Shown piece after piece: positions 2,241 to 51,718 of a stretch of DNA of 64,000 bases. The stretch is from Candidatus Dormiibacterota bacterium (lineage in GTDB: Bacteria > Chloroflexota > Dormibacteria > Dormibacterales > Dormibacteraceae). The translations under genes and the position numbers were made by a program. The stretch's first letter is position 1, and every line of letters starts with the position of its first letter. The DNA is taken from the NCBI GenBank assembly GCA_955652705.1, contig CATPBK010000100.1, positions 661 through 64,660 on the forward strand, given 5' to 3'. The notes under the pieces are model-generated. The model was not told the DNA's origin and searched no databases. It was given only the letters and a program-made list of their open reading frames with translations.

Positions 2241-3734
2241 ATGGCTATCGCCGAAGACCTCGAGATTGCCCGCTACCTGAAAGACCAGCCTAAGAAGCTC
2301 TTCATCGGCGGCCGCTGGGTGGAGGCGGCCTCCGGCAAAACCTTCGACTCGATCAACCCCGCCACCGGCCAGGTTCTGGCCAAGGTCGCGGAAGGGGACC
2401 GGGAGGACATCGACCGGGCGGTGAAGGCGGCTCGTGCCTCCTTCGAGGCCGGCGTCTGGAAGGACCTGCCGCCCTCCGAGCGCGCCAAGATGCTCTGGAA
2501 AGTCGGCGACCTCATCGAGGAGCGCGTGCTGGAGTTCGCCCAGCTCGACAGCCTCGACAACGGCAAGCCCATCAACGAGGCGCTCCTCTTCGACGCCCCG
2601 ATCGCGGCCAGCACCTTCCGCTACTACGCGGGCTGGGTGACCAAGCTGCAGGGCGAGACCCACCAGCTCTCCTTCCCGGGTCGCTACCTGAGCTACACCC
2701 TGCGCGAGCCGGTCGGCGTCGTGGGCGCCATCGTGCCCTGGAACTTCCCGCTGATGATGGCCGCCTGGAAGGTCGCCTCGGCGCTGGCCTGCGGGAACTC
2801 CATGATCCTCAAGCCGGCCGAGGAGACGCCCCTCTCGGCCCTGCTCTTGGCGGAGATCATCCAGGAGGCCGAGATTCCGGCCGGCGTGTTCAATGTCGTG
2901 CCTGGGTTCGGCGAGACAGCCGGAGCCCGGCTCGCCGAGCACCCCGACGTCGACAAGATCGCCTTCACGGGTTCCACAGAGGTGGGCAAGAAGATCGTCC
3001 AAGCCTCGACCGGCAACTTGAAGCGGGTGAGCCTGGAGCTGGGCGGCAAGTCGCCCAACATCGTTTTCGCCGACGCCAACCTGCAGAGCGCCGCCAGCGG
3101 CGCCTTCATGGGCATCTTCGTGAACCAGGGCGAAGTCTGCACCGCAGGCTCACGTCTTTTCGTCGAGGAGAAGGTGTACGAGCAGACGCTGGACGAGCTA
3201 GCCAAGACCGCCGGCGACATCCAGCTCGGCCCCGGCATCGATTCCATGACGCAGATGGGACCGCTTGTCTCGCAGGCGCAGCTCGATCGCGTCATGGGCT
3301 ACATCACGGTCGGCAACGAGGAGGGGGCTCGACTGGTCACCGGCGGCACGCGCGCCGACGGCGACCTCGCCAACGGCTACTTCGTGAAGCCCACGATCTT
3401 CGCCGACGTGAAGGGGACGATGCGGATCGCGCAAGAGGAGATCTTCGGGCCCGTCCTGGCGGCGATCCCGTTCGCCAGCGAGGAAGAGCTGGTCGCCAAG
3501 GCGAACGAGAGCATGTACGGGCTGGCCGCCGGCGTCTGGACTCAAGACGTGAAGCGGGCGCACCGCGTGGCCCACGCACTGCGCGCCGGCACCGTCTGGG
3601 TCAACTGCTACAACGTCGCCGACCCCGCCAACCCTTGGGGCGGCTACAAGCAAAGCGGCTGGGGCCGCGAACTCGGCCCGTACGCGCTCGAGCTCTACAC
3701 CGAGCTGAAGAACGTCATCCTCGACATCAGCTGA
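2241..3734 (+). CDS. NAD(P)-dependent aldehyde dehydrogenase
   Basis: 497 aa with ALDH hallmarks VPWNFPL, FTGSTEVGK, LELGGKSP and EEIFGPV plus a catalytic Cys region (GEVCTAGSR). Confidence 0.9.
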   Translation: MAIAEDLEIARYLKDQPKKLFIGGRWVEAASGKTFDSINPATGQVLAKVAEGDREDIDRAVKAARASFEAGVWKDLPPSERAKMLWKVGDLIEERVLEFAQLDSLDNGKPINEALLFDAPIAASTFRYYAGWVTKLQGETHQLSFPGRYLSYTLREPVGVVGAIVPWNFPLMMAAWKVASALACGNSMILKPAEETPLSALLLAEIIQEAEIPAGVFNVVPGFGETAGARLAEHPDVDKIAFTGSTEVGKKIVQASTGNLKRVSLELGGKSPNIVFADANLQSAASGAFMGIFVNQGEVCTAGSRLFVEEKVYEQTLDELAKTAGDIQLGPGIDSMTQMGPLVSQAQLDRVMGYITVGNEEGARLVTGGTRADGDLANGYFVKPTIFADVKGTMRIAQEEIFGPVLAAIPFASEEELVAKANESMYGLAAGVWTQDVKRAHRVAHALRAGTVWVNCYNVADPANPWGGYKQSGWGRELGPYALELYTELKNVILDIS

Positions 3735-4632: not shown

Positions 4633-5262
4633 CTAGCGAGGCGCCGCCGCCAGGATGGCATCGACCGCCCGCGCGTGGCCGAGCCGTCCCGTGTCCACGA
4701 CCAGGTCGTAGTGGCCTGGCTTCAGCCAGTCGTGGCCGTAGACCTGCTTCACATAGGCGGCCCGGTTGGCGTCGGTCGCGCGGAGCAGCTTGCGAGCCTC
4801 AGCCTCTGCCAGCTGCAGCTGCTCCATGGCTTCCCGAAGCCGGAACTCCTCGCCCGCAAGGAGGAACACGCTGAGCGCGTCCGGGCGGTCGCGCAAAATG
4901 TAAGCCGCGCCTCGCCCGACGACCACCGCGTCGCCTTGCGCGGCCTGCTTGATCACCACCTGAGTCAGTCGGAGCACCGAACGGCTCAGGTCAAAGGCGG
5001 GATCCGAATAGGGTGGCGTCCAGGCCGCCACGTCCTGCGGCGTGGAGAGGTCGACAGTCGCGAGCTGGCGGAGGAGCCGGTCGAGGAGGGAGCCGCGCTT
5101 CTCGTCGTAGGCCTCGACCACGTCGCGCCCGAGCCGGAGTTGCCGCGCCACCTCGTCGATGATCTTGCTGTCCAGGTACTCCCAGCCGAGCCGGTCGGCC
5201 ACCATCCGGCCCACCTTCTCGCCCCCGGCTCCGAACTGGCGACCGATCGTGATGACGGCCAT
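4633..5262 (-). CDS. cytidylate kinase-like family protein (AAA/P-loop)
   Basis: 209 aa. The N-terminus MAVITIGRQFGAGGEKVGRMVADRLGWEYLD is typical of the Cytidylate_kin2 family. Confidence 0.75.
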   Translation of the reverse strand: MAVITIGRQFGAGGEKVGRMVADRLGWEYLDSKIIDEVARQLRLGRDVVEAYDEKRGSLLDRLLRQLATVDLSTPQDVAAWTPPYSDPAFDLSRSVLRLTQVVIKQAAQGDAVVVGRGAAYILRDRPDALSVFLLAGEEFRLREAMEQLQLAEAEARKLLRATDANRAAYVKQVYGHDWLKPGHYDLVVDTGRLGHARAVDAILAAAPR

Positions 5263-8532: not shown

Positions 8533-11202
8533 CTACTTGGTCGTGGAGCCCTCGGCCACCACCGCCTGCGCGGCCGCCAGCCTGGCGACCGGGACCCGGT
8601 AGGGGCTGCAGGAGACATAGTCCAGGCCCAGCTCATGGCAGAGCTGGATCGAGTCGGGGTCACCACCGTGCTCCCCGCAGATGCCGACCTCGAGGTCGGG
8701 CCGGGTCTGCCGGCCCTCGTCGACGGCGATCGCCATAAGACGGCCGACGCCGTTGCGGTCGAGGGTCTCGAAGGGGTTCTGGGGCAGGATCTTCTGCTCC
8801 ACGTAGCGGCCGATGAACTTGCCCTCGGCGTCGTCGCGGCTGAAGCCGAACGTGGTCTGCGTCAGGTCGTTGGTGCCGAAGGAGAAGAACTGCGCCTCGC
8901 GGGCGATCTCGGAGGCGGTCAGCGCCGCCCGCGGGATCTCGATCATGGTGCCGAACTTGTACTCGACCTCGACGCCCTTCTCCTTCTGGACCTGCCGTGC
9001 CACCGGCTCCAGCTCGTGCTTCACGAACCGCAGCTCGTTCACGTGCCCGACCAGCGGGATCATGATCTCGGGCCGGGCGTCGACCCCCTTCTTTTTCAGG
9101 TTGCAGGCCGCCTCCATGATGGCCCGGACCTGCATCCGGGTGATCTCAGGAAACAGGATCGAGAGCCGGCAGCCGCGCAAGCCCAACATGGGGTTGGCCT
9201 CGCGCAGCTGTTCGACACGGTCGAGCAGCCTCTGGACCTTCTTCAGCTTGGGACTCTTCGGGTTCTTGATTCGCAGCTCGGTCGCCTCGACCAGGAGCGC
9301 TTCGAAGTTGGGCAGGAACTCGTGGAGCGGTGGGTCGATCAGGCGGATCACGACCGGCAGCCCGTGCATGGCCTTGAAGATGCCCTCGAAGTCAGAGCGC
9401 TGGACCGGGAGCAGCTTCTCGAGCTGCTTCTCGCGCTCCTTGGTCGAGTCGGCCAGGATCATCGCCTGCACGATGGGCAGCCGCTCCTCCTCCATGAACA
9501 TGTGCTCGGTGCGGCAAAGCCCGATGCCCTGGGCACCGTTCTCACGCGCCTTCTCCGCGTCCCGCGGATAGTCCGCGTTGGCCCAGACCTGGAGCCGGCG
9601 GATCGCGTCGGCCCAGCCGAGCAGCGTCTTCTGGTCGGCCGACGGCTTCGGCTCGATGGTCTTCACCTGGCCCGAGTAGACCGCCCCGTTGGTGCCGTCG
9701 ATAGTGATCGTGTCGCCCTGCTTGACCACTGTCCCGTTGGAGCTGAACTTGCGCTCCCGGAGGTCGACATCGATCTGGTTGGCGCCCACGACGCAGGGCC
9801 GGCCCATGCCGCGGGCGACCAGGGCCGCGTGGCTGGCGGTGCCGCCGGTTGAGGTCAGGATGCCCTTGGCGGCGATCATCCCGTGCACGTCGGAGGGGTT
9901 GGTCTCGACGCGGACCAGGATCACCGCCTTGCCCTCCTTCCCCCACTCCTCCGCAGTGTCGGGGTCGAAGACGGCCTGGCCCGTGGCCGCGCCCGGCGAG
10001 GCCGGCACACCCTTGCCGATGGGCTTGGCGTTGGCCTGCGGGTCGACGCGCGGGTGGAGCAGCTGCTCGAGCTGGCGGGGCTCGACGCGGGCGACCGCCT
10101 CCTCGCGCGAAACGAGGCCCTCGCCCTCCATGGCGACCGCGATGCGGACCGCCGCCTCGCCCGTCCGCTTGGCGTTCCGGGTCTGGAGCATATAGAGCTT
10201 TCCGCGCTCGATCGTGAACTCCAGGTCCTGGACGTCGCGATAGTGCTTTTCGAGCTTCTCGGCGTAGTCCTGAAATTGCCGGTAAACCTCCGGGTTGTGC
10301 TTCTTCAGCCCGCTGATCGGCTCGGTGTCACGAATCCCGGCCACGACGTCCTCGCCCTGGGCGTTGCGGAGGTAGTCGCCGTAGAGCTCCTTGGCGCCCG
10401 TGATCGGGTTGCGCGTGAAGGCGACGCCCGTCCCGGAGCCGTCGCCCATGTTGCCGAAGACCATGGTCTGCACGTTGACCGCCGTGCCCAGGTCGTCGGG
10501 GATCTTCTCCGCGCGGCGGTAGGCGACCGCGCGCTCGGTGTTCCAGGAGCTGAAGACGGCGTTGATGGCGGCGCGCAGCTGCTCGAGCGGATCTTCAGGA
10601 AACGCTTCATGCGTGTGCTTCTTATAGAGGCCTTTGAAGGCCTCGACCACTTCCCGCAGCTCCTTCGGCTTGAGCTCGGGGTCGGTCTTCACGCCGGCCA
10701 GCTTCTTGGCGCCCGAAAGAGCGTCTTCGAAGAGCTCGCCCTCGATGCCCTTCACGATCTTGCCGAACATCTGTATGAACCGGCGGTAGGCGTCGAGCGC
10801 GAAGCGCTCATCGCCGGTCAGGCGCTGGAGGCCCGTCAGAGTGGCCTGGTTCAAGCCCAGGTTGAGGACCGTGTCCATCATCCCCGGCATCGAGAACTTG
10901 GCGCCCGAGCGGACGCTGACGAGGAGAGGGTTGGCGGCGTCGCCGAAACCCTTACCGGCCTGCTGCTCGACCTCCTTCAGCGCCTCGGTGACCTGTTCCC
11001 AGAGGCCTTTCGGAAACTTGCGGCCGTCCGCGTAGTACTGCCGGCAGGCCTCGGTCGTGATCGTCAACCCGGGTGGCACGGGCATCCCCGCGCGCGTCAT
11101 CTCCGCGACCCCGGCGCCCTTGCCGCCGAGCAGGTCGCGCAGGTCCTTGGAACCCTCTTTGAAGAGGTACACCCATTTCGTCTGCGTTGCTGTCTGCCCC
11201 AT
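8533..11202 (-). CDS. ppdK: pyruvate, phosphate dikinase
   Basis: The conserved N-terminus MGQTATQTKWVYLFKEGSKDLRDLLGGKGAGVAEM starts at the ATG at 11200-11202. The catalytic His region GGTASHAALVARGMG and the PEP-utiliser C-terminus are present. The track ORF extends 147 codons further (Arg-rich junk overlapping RayT), so I trimmed it. Confidence 0.93.
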   Translation of the reverse strand: MGQTATQTKWVYLFKEGSKDLRDLLGGKGAGVAEMTRAGMPVPPGLTITTEACRQYYADGRKFPKGLWEQVTEALKEVEQQAGKGFGDAANPLLVSVRSGAKFSMPGMMDTVLNLGLNQATLTGLQRLTGDERFALDAYRRFIQMFGKIVKGIEGELFEDALSGAKKLAGVKTDPELKPKELREVVEAFKGLYKKHTHEAFPEDPLEQLRAAINAVFSSWNTERAVAYRRAEKIPDDLGTAVNVQTMVFGNMGDGSGTGVAFTRNPITGAKELYGDYLRNAQGEDVVAGIRDTEPISGLKKHNPEVYRQFQDYAEKLEKHYRDVQDLEFTIERGKLYMLQTRNAKRTGEAAVRIAVAMEGEGLVSREEAVARVEPRQLEQLLHPRVDPQANAKPIGKGVPASPGAATGQAVFDPDTAEEWGKEGKAVILVRVETNPSDVHGMIAAKGILTSTGGTASHAALVARGMGRPCVVGANQIDVDLRERKFSSNGTVVKQGDTITIDGTNGAVYSGQVKTIEPKPSADQKTLLGWADAIRRLQVWANADYPRDAEKARENGAQGIGLCRTEHMFMEEERLPIVQAMILADSTKEREKQLEKLLPVQRSDFEGIFKAMHGLPVVIRLIDPPLHEFLPNFEALLVEATELRIKNPKSPKLKKVQRLLDRVEQLREANPMLGLRGCRLSILFPEITRMQVRAIMEAACNLKKKGVDARPEIMIPLVGHVNELRFVKHELEPVARQVQKEKGVEVEYKFGTMIEIPRAALTASEIAREAQFFSFGTNDLTQTTFGFSRDDAEGKFIGRYVEQKILPQNPFETLDRNGVGRLMAIAVDEGRQTRPDLEVGICGEHGGDPDSIQLCHELGLDYVSCSPYRVPVARLAAAQAVVAEGSTTK

Positions 11203-11258
11203 GTCTGTTGATAAGTTTGACGGACTGGCGACCTCGGTTCCGAGGCCTTTAATGGGCC

Positions 11259-11804
11259 TCAACCCTGGAGGAGGTCGTAGGGGCGGGACTTGTCCCGCCC
11301 GTCGAGGGATAACCTCGAACGAGGGGGTGGTGTCCGCGGTGGAACCGCCGCATTCTCGTGATCCTCGGCCCACCTTGCGGGATTCGCTTCGATGTAGTTC
11401 CAGGCCGCCTCCAGCTCTCGTTCGTCGCGAATGACTCTGTCGTAGTAACCCCGCTGCCAGATCGGTTGGCCGGCTCGCCGGGTGACAGCCGCCTTGTAGA
11501 CACCGACGAAGGTGCTCAATCGAGTGCGACGGGAGAGGGAGTCGGTGCCCAAGTTCAACCAGACGATTCCGTGCACGTGGTTGGGCATCAGCACGAACAC
11601 GTGGGACTTCGCATCGGGGAACAGCGAAGCGGATCGCCACCACTCGGCTTCGGCGATTGTGCCGAGCTCGGACCGCGACATCGCGGCGTGTTCGTCGATG
11701 CTTCCGAACAGCTCGTATCGCAAGCGGGTCACGACCGTGACGAAATACCAGTCGGGGGCGCTGTAGTCCCAGTGTTTCAGTCGGGGCGAGCGGCGCTGGA
11801 TCAC
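11259..11804 (-). CDS. REP-associated tyrosine (Y1, IS200-like) transposase, RayT type
   Basis: 181 aa with HUH motif LMPNHVHGIVW and the C-terminal block WQRGYYDRVIRDERELEAAWNYIEANPARW. There is no tnpB partner, and the gene is flanked by inverted REP hairpins (next three features). Confidence 0.8.
   Translation of the reverse strand: MIQRRSPRLKHWDYSAPDWYFVTVVTRLRYELFGSIDEHAAMSRSELGTIAEAEWWRSASLFPDAKSHVFVLMPNHVHGIVWLNLGTDSLSRRTRLSTFVGVYKAAVTRRAGQPIWQRGYYDRVIRDERELEAAWNYIEANPARWAEDHENAAVPPRTPPPRSRLSLDGRDKSRPYDLLQG
11276..11306 (+). repeat. REP hairpin copy 1 (GTAG head + 9-bp stem)
   Basis: Sequence cGTAG-GGGCGGGAC-TT-GTCCCGCCC-gtcgag. It lies inside the last ~15 codons of the RayT ORF. Confidence 0.8.
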
Positions 11805-11860
11805 GCGCCGATCATGGATCAGAGGCGCTGTGCGTGTCAGCCCTTATTAACAGCCGGACC

Positions 11861-11891
11861 CACGACGGGCGAGACAAGTCTCGCCCCTACG
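11861..11891 (-). repeat. REP hairpin copy 2 (inverted relative to copy 1)
   Basis: The reverse complement is cGTAG-GGGCGAGAC-TT-GTCTCGCCC-gtcgtg. It matches copy 1 at 28/31 positions, with a compensatory G:C to A:T stem change. Confidence 0.8.
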
Positions 11892-11901
11892 ACACCTAAT
11901 C

Positions 11902-11932
11902 CACGACGGGCGAGACAAGTCTCGCCCCTACG
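11902..11932 (-). repeat. REP hairpin copy 3 (identical to copy 2, 10-nt spacer)
   Basis: Exact 31-nt duplicate of copy 2. It ends 1 nt before the glyQS stop codon. Confidence 0.8.
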
Positions 11933-13246
11933 TTAGAAGCGCTGGGTTAACTCATCGACCAGCTCGGCGATGGGGACCCGGACCTGCTCCATCGAGTCCC
12001 GCTCCCGGATCGTGACCGCCCGGTCCTGCAGCGAGTCGAAGTCGACCGTGACGCAGTAAGGCGTGCCGACCTCGTCCTGCCGGCGATAGCGACGCCCGAT
12101 ATTGCCGCCGGTCTGGTCGTACTCGACCCGGAAGTGCGGCCGCAGCGCGGTCACGATCTCGCGCGCGGGTCCAATCAGCTCTTCCTTCTTGGAGAGGGGC
12201 ATCACCGCCACCTGGACCGGCGCCACGTTGCGGTGGAAGCGCAGCACGACCCGGGTCTCGCCTTTGACCTCGTCCTCGTCGTAAGCGTCGAGAAGCAGCA
12301 TGATCGCGATCCGGTCGGCGCCGACCGCCGGTTCGATCACCCATGGCAGGTAGCGCTCGTTCGTCTCCGGGTCCAGGTAGCTCAGGTCCTCGCCGGAGCG
12401 CTCCTGGTGCGTGCGGAGGTCGAAGTCGGTGCGGTCGGCCACGCCCTCCAGCTCCCCCCAGCCGAAAGGGAAGTCGTACTCGATGTCGGTTGTCTGCTTC
12501 GAATAGTGGGAAAGGCTCTCCTTGGGATGGTCGAAGAAGCGCAGGCGGTCGGGCCTGACGCCGAGCACCTCCTGGTACCAGCGCATCCGCTCGGCCCGCC
12601 AGTACTCGAACCAGCGGTCGTCCTCGTCAGGCTTGACGAAGTACTCCATCTCCATGAGCTCGAACTCGCGAAGCCGGAACACGAAGTTGCCCGGCGTGAT
12701 CTCGTTGCGGAAAGCGCGGCCCTGCTGGGCGATGCCGAAGGGGATGCGGACGCGGGTCGAGTTGAGCACGTTCTTGAAGTCCACGAACATGCCCTGGGCG
12801 GTCTCCGGGCGGAGGTGGACCTCGGAGGCGGAATCGGCGACCGGGCCCACGTGAGTGGCGAACATGAGGTTGAAGAGGCGCGGCTCGCTCAGCGCGCCGC
12901 CGCAGTTCGGACAGCGGCCGCCCTGCACCTGGTCGCCCCGCCAGCGGCGCTTGCAGTCACCAAGGCATTGCACCAGCGGGTCCACGAAGTTGTCGACGTG
13001 GCCGGAGGCTTTCCAGACCTCCGGGTGCATGATCAAGGTCGACTCCAGCCCGACCACGTCGTCCCGCAGCTCGACCAGATGCCGCCACCAGAGCTCGCGG
13101 ATGTTGCGCTTCAGCGCCACGCCATAGGGGCCGTAGTCGTAGAACCCGGAGAGGCCCCCGTAGATCTCGCTCGACTGGAAGATGAATCCCCGCCGCTTGC
13201 AGAGCGCGGTGACCTTCTCCATGAGGTCGTCGCGGGTGATCGCCAC
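11933..13246 (-). CDS. glyQS: glycine--tRNA ligase (class II, homodimeric type)
   Basis: 437 aa. N-terminus MAITRDDLMEKVTALCKRRGFIFQSSEIYGGLSGFYDYGPYG, and class II motifs are present. GTG start. Confidence 0.95.
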   Translation of the reverse strand: MAITRDDLMEKVTALCKRRGFIFQSSEIYGGLSGFYDYGPYGVALKRNIRELWWRHLVELRDDVVGLESTLIMHPEVWKASGHVDNFVDPLVQCLGDCKRRWRGDQVQGGRCPNCGGALSEPRLFNLMFATHVGPVADSASEVHLRPETAQGMFVDFKNVLNSTRVRIPFGIAQQGRAFRNEITPGNFVFRLREFELMEMEYFVKPDEDDRWFEYWRAERMRWYQEVLGVRPDRLRFFDHPKESLSHYSKQTTDIEYDFPFGWGELEGVADRTDFDLRTHQERSGEDLSYLDPETNERYLPWVIEPAVGADRIAIMLLLDAYDEDEVKGETRVVLRFHRNVAPVQVAVMPLSKKEELIGPAREIVTALRPHFRVEYDQTGGNIGRRYRRQDEVGTPYCVTVDFDSLQDRAVTIRERDSMEQVRVPIAELVDELTQRF

Positions 13247-22122: not shown

Positions 22123-22557
22123 ATGGCTAAGCGAACCGCCTCCGCCAAGAAGCAGGCGCGCGCCGGCGCCCGCCGCGCGGTGCGCAACCGCTCGGTGCGG
22201 TCGGCGGTGAAGACGCGGGTCGCCCGGGCCCGCCGGGCTGTCGCTGAACACGACGTCGCCGAGGCCCGCGAGAGCGGCGTGGCCGCTGTGTCCGGCCTCG
22301 ACCGAGCCGCCGAGAAGGGCATCCTGCACCCCAACAACGCCGCGCGCCGGAAGTCGCGGTTGATGAAGCTCTTGAACTCGGTGGTCGCGTCCGAGCCTGA
22401 GGCAGCGACCGCAGGCAAGCGGTCGGACAAGAAGGCGGCGCCCGCCAGGAAGGCCGCTCCCGCCAAGAAGGCCGCGCCGGCCGCGAAAGCTGCACCGGCC
22501 AAGAAGGCCACCGCAAAGCCGGCGGCCGCCAAAAAGACACCGGCCAAGAAGAAATAG
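22123..22557 (+). CDS. rpsT: 30S ribosomal protein S20 with C-terminal Lys/Ala-rich extension
   Basis: Residues 1-88 match S20 (MAKRTASAKKQARAGARRAVRNRSVRS...GILHPNNAARRKSRLMKLLNSV). Residues 89-144 form a KKAAPA-type repeat tail. Confidence 0.9.
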   Translation: MAKRTASAKKQARAGARRAVRNRSVRSAVKTRVARARRAVAEHDVAEARESGVAAVSGLDRAAEKGILHPNNAARRKSRLMKLLNSVVASEPEAATAGKRSDKKAAPARKAAPAKKAAPAAKAAPAKKATAKPAAAKKTPAKKK

Positions 22558-40293: not shown

Positions 40294-41451
40294 ATGTCGT
40301 GTCGAAATGAGACGAGGCAGCTCGATTGTCTTAGCGCTGATCCTGAGTGCCGTGGCTTGCTCGACTTCAGCACCCAAGGCGCCGACCCCGTCCCCGACAA
40401 CGAGTTCACCACAGGGCAGGTGATCGCCATTACATCCCGGCCCTCCGACGTCGTGGTGGCTGACCTCAACGGCGACGGGAAGCCGGACACCGCGGTTACC
40501 AGCGAGACCGATCCAGTCGTCGGAGTGACCCTGGGCAAGGGCGACGGAACGTTCGCCAAGATGTTGAGTATCCCCGCCGGTCAAGTGGGCAGCCACATCG
40601 TCGCCGCGGATCTCGACGGCGACGGGCACGTCGACCTGGCGACCTCCAACCATGACGGCACCGCGACCGCCCTCTGGGGTAACGGCGACGGAACCTTCAG
40701 CCGACCGGTGAGCTACAAGGTCAGGGGTGACCTGGCTGTCGCCGAAGCATGGTGGCTTGTTGCGGCCGACTTGAACGGCGATCGCGCGCTCGATCTGGTC
40801 GTGTCGATCTACGGCTCGAACGGTCCCGATCCTTCAGCTCCGGGCCAAGTGGCCGTGCTCCTCAACCGCGGCAGCAGGACCTTTGACAACCCGGTCTTCT
40901 ACGCGGATCGCGCGGCTGTGGCCGTCGTCGCGGGAGACTTCGATAGCGACGGGAAGATCGACATCGCGACAGCCGATTTCGACCGCACTGTGCGCGTCTT
41001 TCGGGGTGACGGCACTGGTCACCTGGGACCAGCGGCGGAGTACTCGATCGACGGACAGGGAGTGGCGATCGCAGCGGGCGACTTCAATGGAGACAGCGTC
41101 CTGGACCTGGCCACCGGAAACGATGGCACCCACAGCCTGTCGGTCTTGCGCGGCCTGGGGGAGGGAACGTTCGGGACATCGGTGCGCTTCGAGGCCGGCA
41201 ATACCCACACGATCGCCTTGGCTGACCTGAATCGCGACGGCCACCTCGACCTGCTCGCCGGCGGCTTCGACGAAAGGTTCGTACGCTTCTTGCCCGGGAA
41301 GGGCGACGGCAGCTTCCTCGCGGAGGTGAGGATCGATATGGGCTGGGCCAATGCACGCGGCGTGGCCGCCGCCGACTTCAACGGCGACCGCAAACTGGAC
41401 CTTGCCGTCGCAGACAACGGCCCGACACTCCATGTGTTCATCGGCAAGTAG
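40294..41451 (+). CDS. FG-GAP/VCBS repeat (integrin-alpha-like beta-propeller) protein; N-terminus probably frameshifted
   Basis: Seven DxDxDG-type repeats (ADLNGDGKPD, ADLDGDGHVD, ADLNGDRALD, GDFDSDGKID, GDFNGDSVLD, ADLNRDGHLD, ADFNGDRKLD). The in-frame N-terminus MSCRNETRQLDC... has no signal peptide. Confidence 0.8.
   Translation: MSCRNETRQLDCLSADPECRGLLDFSTQGADPVPDNEFTTGQVIAITSRPSDVVVADLNGDGKPDTAVTSETDPVVGVTLGKGDGTFAKMLSIPAGQVGSHIVAADLDGDGHVDLATSNHDGTATALWGNGDGTFSRPVSYKVRGDLAVAEAWWLVAADLNGDRALDLVVSIYGSNGPDPSAPGQVAVLLNRGSRTFDNPVFYADRAAVAVVAGDFDSDGKIDIATADFDRTVRVFRGDGTGHLGPAAEYSIDGQGVAIAAGDFNGDSVLDLATGNDGTHSLSVLRGLGEGTFGTSVRFEAGNTHTIALADLNRDGHLDLLAGGFDERFVRFLPGKGDGSFLAEVRIDMGWANARGVAAADFNGDRKLDLAVADNGPTLHVFIGK
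40307..40423 (+). other. out-of-frame lipoprotein signal-peptide segment belonging to the FG-GAP gene
   Basis: The +1 frame reads MRRGSSIVLALILSAVAC-STSAPKAPTPSPTTSSPQGR then TGA, a textbook lipobox plus Ser/Thr/Pro linker. It stops where the FG-GAP frame becomes meaningful. Confidence 0.5.
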
Positions 41452-50276: not shown

Positions 50277-51718
50277 AGGCAGCGATTCGCAGCCACCAGA
50301 TGTTCGTGGGCGGCGATTGGGCGCCCGGCTCCGGCGGCGAGGTCCAGGAGGTCAAGAACCCGGCGACCGGCGAGGTCATCGCGCAGGTCCCGAAGGGCAC
50401 GCCGGCGGACGTCGACGCCGCGGTGGCCGCAGCCCGTAAGGCTTACGAAGAAACCTGGTTCGATAGCACGCCCCGTGACCGCAGCGAGCGATTGCTGAAG
50501 CTCGCCGACGCCGTCGAGGCTCACGGCCAGGAGCTCGCCCGGATCGAGTCGGAGAACGTTGGCAAGCCGCTTGCCGCCACCATCTCGGAGGAGATCCCGC
50601 CCATCGCGGACACCTTCCGCTTCTTCGCCGGGGCCGCCCGGCTGCTCGAGGGACGCGCGGCCGGTGAGTACATGACCGGCTTCACGAGCTTCATCCGGCG
50701 GGAGTCGCTCGGCGTGGTTGGGTCGATCGCTCCCTGGAACTACCCGCTGCTGATGGCGGCGTGGAAGGTCGCTCCCGCGCTGGCGGCGGGCAACACCGTC
50801 GTGCTCAAGCCTTCCGAGTGGACGCCGCTCACAGCGCTGCGGCTGGCCGAGCTGGCGGCCGACATCCTGCCGCCCGGCGTCCTCAACGTGATCACCGGCG
50901 ACGGGGAGCCGGTCGGCGCCGGGCTCGTCCGCCATCCCGGAGTGAACATGGTGTCTCTGACCGGCGACGTCGCGACTGGCAAGGAGGTCGCCCGGGCCGC
51001 CGCCGCGACGCTGAAGCGCGTCCACCTCGAGCTGGGCGGCAAGGCGCCGGTGATCGTCTTCGACGACGCCGATGTGGCCGCGGTCGTGGAAGGCATCAAG
51101 GTGGGCGGCTTCTTCAACGCGGGCCAGGACTGCACCGCGGCGACGCGCGTCATCGCCGGTCCCGGGATCCATGACAGCCTGCTGGCCGACCTGGTGCCGG
51201 CCGTCAACTCCCTCCACGTCGGCGATCCCACGGCCGACGACACCGAGATGGGCCCTCTCGTTTCCGACGAGCAGCTGGACCGCGTCGCCGGCTTCGTGGA
51301 CCGGGCGCGGCAGGGCGGCGCCAAGGTGCTGGCGGGGGGCTCGCGGATCGACAAGCCGGGGTCCTGGTACAAGCCGACTGTCGTGCTGCCGCCCGCGCCC
51401 GACGCCGAGATCGTGCAGCGGGAGGTGTTCGGGCCGGTCGTCACCGTCCAGCAGTTCAGCGATGAAGAGCAGGCCCTGGCCTGGGCGAATGGTGTCGACT
51501 ACGGGCTGGCCGCTTCGGTCTGGACCCGCGACGTCGGGCGCGCGCTCCGCATGGCGCGACGGCTGCAGTTCGGGACGGTCTGGATCAACGCGCACATCCC
51601 GCTCGTGAACGAGATGCCACACGGCGGCTACAAACAGAGCGGCTACGGCAAGGACATGTCGATCTACTCACTCGAGGAGTACACGCAGATAAAGCACGTG
51701 ATGGCGTCGCTCGACTGA
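50273..51718 (+). CDS. aldehyde dehydrogenase (aminobutyraldehyde / succinate-semialdehyde dehydrogenase-like)
   Basis: 481 aa with an ATGA overlap onto the previous gene. Motifs [39 protein letters not shown]. Confidence 0.88.

Follow-up and report, generated by a model that had tools for sequence, protein, structure and literature searches.

A REPtron, that is, an intact RayT transposase gene lying between inverted cognate repetitive extragenic palindromes (REPs), very probably occupies the site between glyQS and ppdK on the chromosome of a soil Chloroflexota bacterium. The locus was studied in a 64,000-nt stretch (the window) of contig CATPBK010000100.1, positions 661 to 64,660, from the assembly GCA_955652705.1 of a Candidatus Dormiibacterota bacterium. 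Work on RayT/REP systems has dealt almost wholly with Proteobacteria. An earlier note on this DNA had described a RayT-type Y1 gene bracketed by inverted GTAG-headed REP hairpins, and this description was borne out by the anatomy of the locus, by a match to the NCBIfam family NF047646, and by sequence, profile and fold matches to the E. coli enzyme TnpA_REP (PDB entry 4ER8).

Three REP copies with the pattern GTAG-GGGCGRGAC-TT-GTCYCGCCC were found, one at one end of a 181-aa open reading frame (ORF) and two, inverted, at the other. The search with the 24-nt core pattern, allowing up to 3 mismatches, gave 3 matches in the 64-kb window versus 0 in 100 shuffles, and a looser scan of the window revealed no further copy either. 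Copy 1 is laid out as CGTAG-GGGCGGGAC-TT-GTCCCGCCC-GTCGAG. Copies 2 and 3 are identical to each other and stand in tandem with a 10-nt spacer; their reverse complement (CGTAGGGGCGAGACTTGTCTCGCCCGTCGTG) is laid out as CGTAG-GGGCGAGAC-TT-GTCTCGCCC-GTCGTG. Each copy has a 9-bp stem and a 2-nt loop, with GTAG directly at the hairpin foot. Copy 1 differs from the other two at 3 of 31 positions, and two of these differences are the partners of a single stem pair, G:C in copy 1 and A:T in the others. The hairpin is maintained through compensatory changes. In single-stranded DNA folding, every copy formed a predicted hairpin of 8–9 bp (−10.3 to −12.1 kcal/mol, z from −3.0 to −3.9). Copy 1 encodes the last 15 codons of the ORF, and the outermost copy ends at 11932, directly beside the glyQS stop codon (11933–11935). 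The earlier note thus proved accurate on this part of the locus: the three 31-nt copies, their orientations, spacer and coordinates were all verified on the sequence, as were the 28/31 identity with its compensatory swap, the contribution of copy 1 to the end of the ORF and the contact of the outermost REP with the glyQS stop, and the folding check it had suggested gave the expected hairpin. The two bases 5′ of GTAG are TC or AC in the window and mostly CT among the matches listed from other genomes. An Rfam search of the region gave no match. The terminator scan of the region found no terminator and no T-run features, and the REPs are therefore not classical intrinsic terminators.

The 181-aa ORF with its HUH motif was confirmed at the position and on the strand given in Table 1. 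The sole NCBIfam family matched by the protein was NF047646 (REP_Tyr_transpos, E = 1.4e-18, 67.2 bits); none of the IS200 models of NCBIfam was matched. A phmmer search of the Protein Data Bank (PDB) with the single sequence returned 4ER8 as the sole match, and a profile built from 57 sequences matched 4ER8 with an E-value of 6.3e-8 versus 0.39 for the IS200/IS605 transposase TnpA of ISDra2. The AlphaFold model of RayT (pLDDT 86.4) had low confidence only at residues 150–181; its top Foldseek match was 4ER8_A (E = 1.2e-7), followed by IS200/IS605 transposases. The protein database contained 466 RayT homologues, many of which carry the JGI name RayT; the closest, from soil metagenome contigs, are 88% and then 61–68% identical.

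Residues known to matter in the E. coli enzyme are retained. H76, H78, W116, Q117, R126 and N141 are invariant among 57 homologues, Y137 is present in at least 90% of them, and the functional residues aligned with 4ER8 are all invariant or nearly so. In E. coli TnpA_REP, W94, Q95 and R104, together with E100 and H101, contact the GTAG (PMC6006769). D122 and R123 occupy the positions of E100 and H101; the same D-for-E100 and R-for-H101 substitutions have been reported in REP-associated subclasses 2.5 and 2.7 (PMC6006769), a likeness drawn here by residues. Compared with its 88%-identical homologue, the gene has a ratio of nonsynonymous to synonymous substitution rates (dN/dS) of 0.10 over 150 codons, which indicates purifying selection and argues for a functional gene. 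By contrast with this conserved part, residues 150–181 form a variable tail, partly REP-encoded and unconserved in homologues; it differs in every close homologue, is repeatedly read from a REP in different frames, and is probably incidental. In a further RayT gene (L126:4893–5408), which lies in a context of 2-hydroxyacid dehydrogenase and M24 peptidase genes, a REP at 5159–5182 is translated through as ...GGASPAPTTT...; such read-through has been described for subclass 2.4 (PMC6006769).

Table 1. Features of the RayT locus and their positions in the window.
Feature	Position	Strand	Basis or remark
RayT / TnpA_REP-like ORF, 181 aa, GTG start	11259–11804	−	ORF list, NF047646, 4ER8 match
RayT conserved core, residues 1–150	~11355–11804	−	Homologue alignment, model
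HUH motif H76-V77-H78	11571–11579	−	Aligns with HMH of E. coli TnpA_REP
W116-Q117...D122-R123...R126 block	11427–11459	−	W94, Q95, E100, H101, R104 of E. coli TnpA_REP (4ER8 alignment)
Catalytic tyrosine motif Y137-I-E-A-N141 (Y-x3-N)	11382–11396	−	Aligns with Y115...N119 of 4ER8
Promoter-like site CTGACA-18 nt-CATGAT	11811–11840	−	Consensus scan, 1 site versus 0.1 expected
REP copy 1	11276–11306	+	CGTAGGGGCGGGACTTGTCCCGCCCGTCGAG; G:C stem variant; GTAG head on plus strand
REP copy 2	11861–11891	−	A:T stem variant; GTAG head on minus strand; upstream of RayT
REP copy 3	11902–11932	−	Same sequence as copy 2; adjoins glyQS stop codon
Variable cassette, 732 nt	11229–11960		blastn limits versus L121–L123; counterpart there 115 nt

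The promoter-like site lies between the inner upstream REP and the RayT start codon. It is partly conserved in L124, where the CTGACA hexamer and its surroundings are kept, and it may serve as a promoter of the gene.

Comparison of the locus with its relatives revealed three states of one chromosomal site. Four related genomic contigs (L121–L123 and L130), with ~93% DNA identity to the window and 96% identical PpdK and GlyQS proteins, carry an empty site: the gene order is corC-recO-glyQS-ppdK, the glyQS-ppdK spacer is ~105 nt, and neither RayT nor a REP is present there. The variable cassette of the window takes in the last 26 nt of glyQS and stops 26 nt upstream of the ppdK ATG. In two short contigs (L124 and L125), this ppdK-glyQS site is occupied by the 88%-identical RayT. 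Their flanks are 98.6–100% identical to the empty-site genomes, so the presence/absence difference exists within one species-level population. The window and L124 have collinear flanks around a ~570-nt core that is inverted between them; the REPs, which number two plus one in the window and two plus two in L124, point their GTAG heads in an unchanged direction with respect to glyQS and ppdK. The simplest reading is that the inverted REPs recombined with each other and that this likely turned the core around.

The segment without homology is bounded within the last 9–12 glyQS codons and ~22–26 nt upstream of the ppdK ATG, away from the REPs. Such breakpoints in the flanking genes favor exchange by homologous recombination, or deletion, over transposition. 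At these limits, the identity of L124 to its conspecifics drops abruptly from 100%, which points to a resident allele replaced, through homologous recombination, by that of a diverged donor. No convincing similarity to REP remnants was detected in the empty-site spacer of L121, whose sequence does not tell deletion from a site that never received the cassette. At synonymous sites, RayT diverges between the window and L124 by dS = 0.69, ~2.3-fold more than the flanking genes between the window and L121 (0.26–0.33), and its G+C content at third codon positions (GC3) is 0.79 versus 0.93 in its neighbors; by these values, the cassette is old and its composition somewhat foreign. There is one RayT copy in the window and no second copy of the whole unit, and RayT homologues occur in 6 of 72,556 plasmid records. 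Since the same glyQS-ppdK site is occupied in two diverged lineages, with the core inverted between them, the cassette appears to behave as a long-standing chromosomal resident and not as a hopping insertion sequence (IS).

Several further details of this site were observed. In L124, the glyQS stop codon TAG (802–804) comes from the GTAG head of the outermost REP, and the last 11–12 glyQS codons differ among all three alleles (window, L124 and L121). A contig of a sister population (L131, Ga0209059_1000005, 85,719 nt), which matches the L124 flank with 100% identity, stops precisely where the ppdK start codon lies, which suggests an assembly break at the polymorphic, repeat-bearing cassette site. 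In the window, the stretch from the RayT stop codon to ppdK contains two small hairpins (CCTCGG-TT-CCGAGG at 11232–11245 and AGGCC-TTTAATG-GGCCT at 11243–11259), neither of which has a counterpart in the empty-site allele.

The REP core was also sought in other genomes. A scan for GTAGGGGCGNGACNNGTCNCGCCC over one genome per species gave at least 134 matches in at least 120 genomic stretches, so that copy numbers per genome are lower bounds; none of the stretches listed belongs to the source genome. The stretches listed come from Chloroflexota (Anaerolineae, Phototrophicaceae, Aggregatilineales, Ktedonobacterales), Thermoleophilia, Gaiellales, Bryobacterales, Deinococcales, Hyphomicrobiaceae and others. 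The commonest core among the matches listed (62 of 134) is that of window copies 2 and 3. The identical 24-nt core GTAGGGGCGAGACTTGTCTCGCCC was found in Chloroflexota, Actinomycetota, Alphaproteobacteria (Hyphomicrobiaceae), Planctomycetota and other groups, and stem variants of it in Acidobacteriota and Deinococcota. Of the 134 matches listed, 118 have a Watson-Crick combination at the free stem pair, 7 have G-T and 9 another combination, and four pair types are represented; this conservation is supportive without amounting to a formal test, copies within one genome not being independent. A RayT homologue was located near the core in just one of the 120 listed stretches, 4 kb from the match, and the hairpin is therefore a dispersed repeat in those genomes. 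Together, the stretches contain 346 GTAG-GGG hairpins, many of them arranged as inverted doublets (GTAG outside, 21–25-nt spacers) or tandem pairs.

Around RayT genes themselves, inverted GTAG hairpins were present at six of six related loci examined (61–88% identity), with upper stems that vary yet stay paired. A metagenome scan with the RayT alignment returned, apart from one known contig, distant relatives of at most 45% identity, which were used for a hairpin survey; about half of 80 such more distant loci have a GTAG-GGGCG-footed hairpin within 400 nt. Gene and hairpin thus travel together across a large subfamily. A lineage-specific 29-mer (CGTAGGGGCGRGACTTGTCYCGCCCGTCG) had 0 matches in the metagenome collection.

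Two cases from the other genomes deserve description. In the Anaerolineae metagenome-assembled genome (MAG) p16x44bins.21, a nearly identical REPIN-like unit of ~150 nt occurs in at least 10 places (L013, L014, L019, L060, L074, L083, L100, L115, L118); it consists of two different inverted REPs, GTAGGGGCGAGACTTGTCTCGCCC and GGGCGACTCAAGAGTCGCCCCTAC, separated by a 22-nt spacer, with other stem variants at the same locus. On an Aggregatilineales chromosome (OY759986.1, L005:2930–3412), the one RayT homologue located near a dispersed REP, with 36% identity, is itself bracketed by an inverted GTAC-headed pair, GTACGGGCGAGCCGGTGGCTCGCCC.

Some observations weigh against reading the locus as a REPtron. 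The NF047646 score of 67.2 bits lies under the curated cut-off of 80, and the Pfam scan of the protein at E ≤ 0.1 gave no match, including to Y1_Tnp (PF01797), the check proposed in the earlier note; PF01797 is matched by 45 of 57 RayT homologues. With the Pfam scan empty, the protein was assigned to its family through NCBIfam, the profile search against the PDB and the fold search. In structure and at the residue level, the cassette agrees with the REPtron definition; it falls short on curated score cut-offs. The two upstream REPs form a head-to-tail pair with a 10-nt spacer, unlike the inverted doublet with a short spacer typical of REPINs, and no REPIN is present in the window. The cassette is missing from relatives with 93% identity and from conspecific strains of L124, and its high dS and low GC3 are easier to reconcile with exchange or a foreign origin than with strictly vertical inheritance. 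Outside the cassette, no REP was found in the window or in the L121–L123 contig stretches (18–23 kb each), which leaves the claim of an own REP family in this genome unsupported; these REP-free stretches set an upper bound of roughly 150 dispersed copies per ~4.5 Mb genome, far below the E. coli density and still compatible with a family. The claim of domestication found partial support. In its favor, the gene is under purifying selection, the cassette occupies one chromosomal site in two diverged lineages, and homologues are nearly absent from plasmids; the absence from very close relatives and the atypical GC3 speak against it.

It is possible, if somewhat doubtful, that RayT is a resident gene whose REPs have not spread in this lineage, through recent arrival or quiescence, so that the three hairpins are the whole family and, as part of the same reading, have a mainly local role, such as protection of the transcript 3′ end or termination after glyQS, or insulation of ppdK. 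This would account for the lack of any dispersed copy across about 86 kb of DNA from this genus and for the REP pair directly after the glyQS stop, a codon that in L124 the GTAG itself supplies. It has a precedent in Marinomonas, where REPs concentrated around tnpA_REP were read as a recent arrival (PMC8266576). However, 86 kb is ~2% of the genome, and up to roughly 150 copies would escape notice; the T-run features of a terminator are missing, and the dS of 0.69 between cassette versions marks them as old, against recent arrival. Rather unlikely is a bolder proposal, in which the gene-plus-REP cassette is an exchangeable and invertible module that spreads between species, even phyla, its core being flipped by RayT-dependent strand exchange. 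If true, it would explain one identical 24-nt REP core across several phyla, and it would contradict two views, that REPtrons are immobile as units and that REPs are species-specific.

An autonomous IS200/IS605-type IS, with a classical TnpA, hairpins acting as left and right subterminal ends, and presence/absence reflecting recent transposition of the whole unit, appears very improbable. Within 64 kb the hairpins are seen solely beside the gene, very close relatives lack the cassette, RayT has a GC3 below that of host genes, and IS200/IS605 TnpAs are the second-best structural matches, all as such an element would have it. Yet the same GTAG-headed hairpin stands inverted at both sides, versus two different ends on the same strand in these ISs, and the tyrosine motif is Y-x3-N as in TnpA_REP, versus Y-x3-Q (PMC6006769). 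The profile search separated 4ER8 from ISDra2 TnpA by the E-values given above, and no IS200 model of NCBIfam was matched. Furthermore, the allele breakpoints lie within glyQS and upstream of ppdK, away from the hairpins, the flanking REPs have kept their orientation around an inverted core, and at least 119 other genomic stretches have the hairpin but lack the gene. Hardly credible is a decaying relic gene with hairpins as neutral leftovers: its C-terminus does run into a REP and differs in every homologue, and the scores are under curated family thresholds, but the dN/dS is 0.10, the catalytic and GTAG-contact residues are all intact, the fold is predicted with confidence, and the divergent tail lies beyond the conserved domain.

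If the locus is a REPtron, its mode of action can be proposed by analogy with characterized enzymes. TnpA_REP binds the folded REP on single-stranded DNA, requiring GTAG and stem features. It cuts on the 5′ or the 3′ side of the hairpin, where the dinucleotide is CT (or CA), and forms a phosphotyrosine intermediate; it can join strands, and the complementary REP strand is no substrate (PMC3333891, PMC3479197, PMC8266576). By analogy with the E. coli, Stenotrophomonas and Marinomonas enzymes, RayT would bind the folded REP on single-stranded DNA and read the 5′ GTAG at the stem foot. It would then cut a nearby dinucleotide, becoming linked to the 5′ phosphate through Y137, and might rejoin strands; cleavage and rejoining would be the presumed route of REP copying. 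The residues for each of these steps are present in the protein.

The cassette shares with the E. coli REPtron (TnpA_REP/YafM with its REPs and bacterial interspersed mosaic elements; 4ER8; PMC3333891, PMC3479197) the HUH-Y1 fold, the HUH and Y-x3-N motifs, the GTAG-contacting W/Q/R residues, a gene between inverted REPs with 5′ GTAG at the hairpin foot, the absence of tnpB and an essentially chromosomal location. It differs in a sequence identity of ~20%, in D/R in place of E100/H101, and in its REP, a short and perfect palindrome of 9 bp around a 2-nt loop, whereas the E. coli REP has a long bulged stem; the REPs seen in the window are those of the cassette, with no dispersed population among them. 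A short perfect palindrome directly after GTAG is found in group 3 / subclass 2.5 REPtrons of Stenotrophomonas maltophilia (REPtron Sm, with an 8-bp stem and a 3-nt loop) and Pseudomonas (PMC8266576, PMC6006769). However, subclass 2.5 occurs mostly in xanthomonads and pseudomonads (PMC6006769), in contrast to the Chloroflexota host here. Within the same phylum, GTAG-23 of the GC-rich Thermomicrobium roseum, likened here by description, is a family of GTAG REPs, mostly clustered at few loci (PMC3733652).

As in the REPIN-RAYT systems of Bertels and Rainey (PMC3116915, PMC5581495), RayT occurs once in the 64-kb window, is under purifying selection and holds a stable site in diverged lineages, and the same REP core forms much-repeated inverted doublets in other genomes. 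Unlike in those systems, the window doublet is head-to-tail, no dispersed REPINs were seen in the window, and presence/absence and orientation vary among close relatives. With IS200/IS605 TnpA (IS608, ISDra2) the protein shares the HUH-Y1 fold and, presumably, hairpin-guided single-strand chemistry. That family is marked by a Y-x3-Q motif, by end hairpins that differ from each other and lie on one strand, and by a multicopy mobile unit, often with tnpB; none of these features was seen here.

Earlier work had reported GTAG REPs from T. roseum, a member of the Chloroflexi (GTAG-23; PMC3733652), and had catalogued REPtron-type TnpA_Y1 subclasses across phyla (PMC6006769); the statement that such systems are little described in genomes of this kind was thus overstated. 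The known picture of RayT and REPs is unchanged by this locus, which provides a clean, intact RayT/REP example from an uncultured soil Chloroflexota lineage. Two aspects are worth a specialist note. The empty/occupied/inverted series among near-identical genomes is a natural three-state comparison at one site that bears on REPtron gain, loss and rearrangement. One REP core with a conserved GTAG-GGGCG foot, recurring in many phyla, suggests a large RayT subfamily that keeps a common recognition element.

The genes next to the cassette are ppdK (8533–11202), glyQS (11933–13246) and then recO, all on the minus strand. In line with the earlier claim that a tnpB partner is absent, the ORF list contains no tnpB-like ORF at the locus. 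The window has a G+C content of 68%. PpdK, RecO and CorC fall into 90%-identity protein clusters whose named members are Chloroflexi/Chloroflexota MAGs; by these neighbors, the host is a soil Chloroflexota, and the genome is not actinobacterium-like. The 90% cluster of GlyQS has a single member, and glyQS was considered as possible cargo; this was dropped, as tblastn gave 96% identity to the GlyQS of relatives.

Other repeats were observed in the window. Tandem 18-nt repeats at 22428–22551 would encode a lysine/alanine/proline-rich repeat such as KKAAPA. A 46-nt repeat family at 40449–41406 and 50875–50920 encodes a calcium-binding-like ...D(L/F)NGDGK.D... motif and probably represents FG-GAP/VCBS-type repeats within one large gene. 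Finally, the stretches 2683–3077 and 50679–51070, 48 kb apart, are 73–74% identical and look like paralogous genes; the first lies in a 497-aa ORF (2241–3734) whose counterpart in relatives is an aldehyde dehydrogenase.

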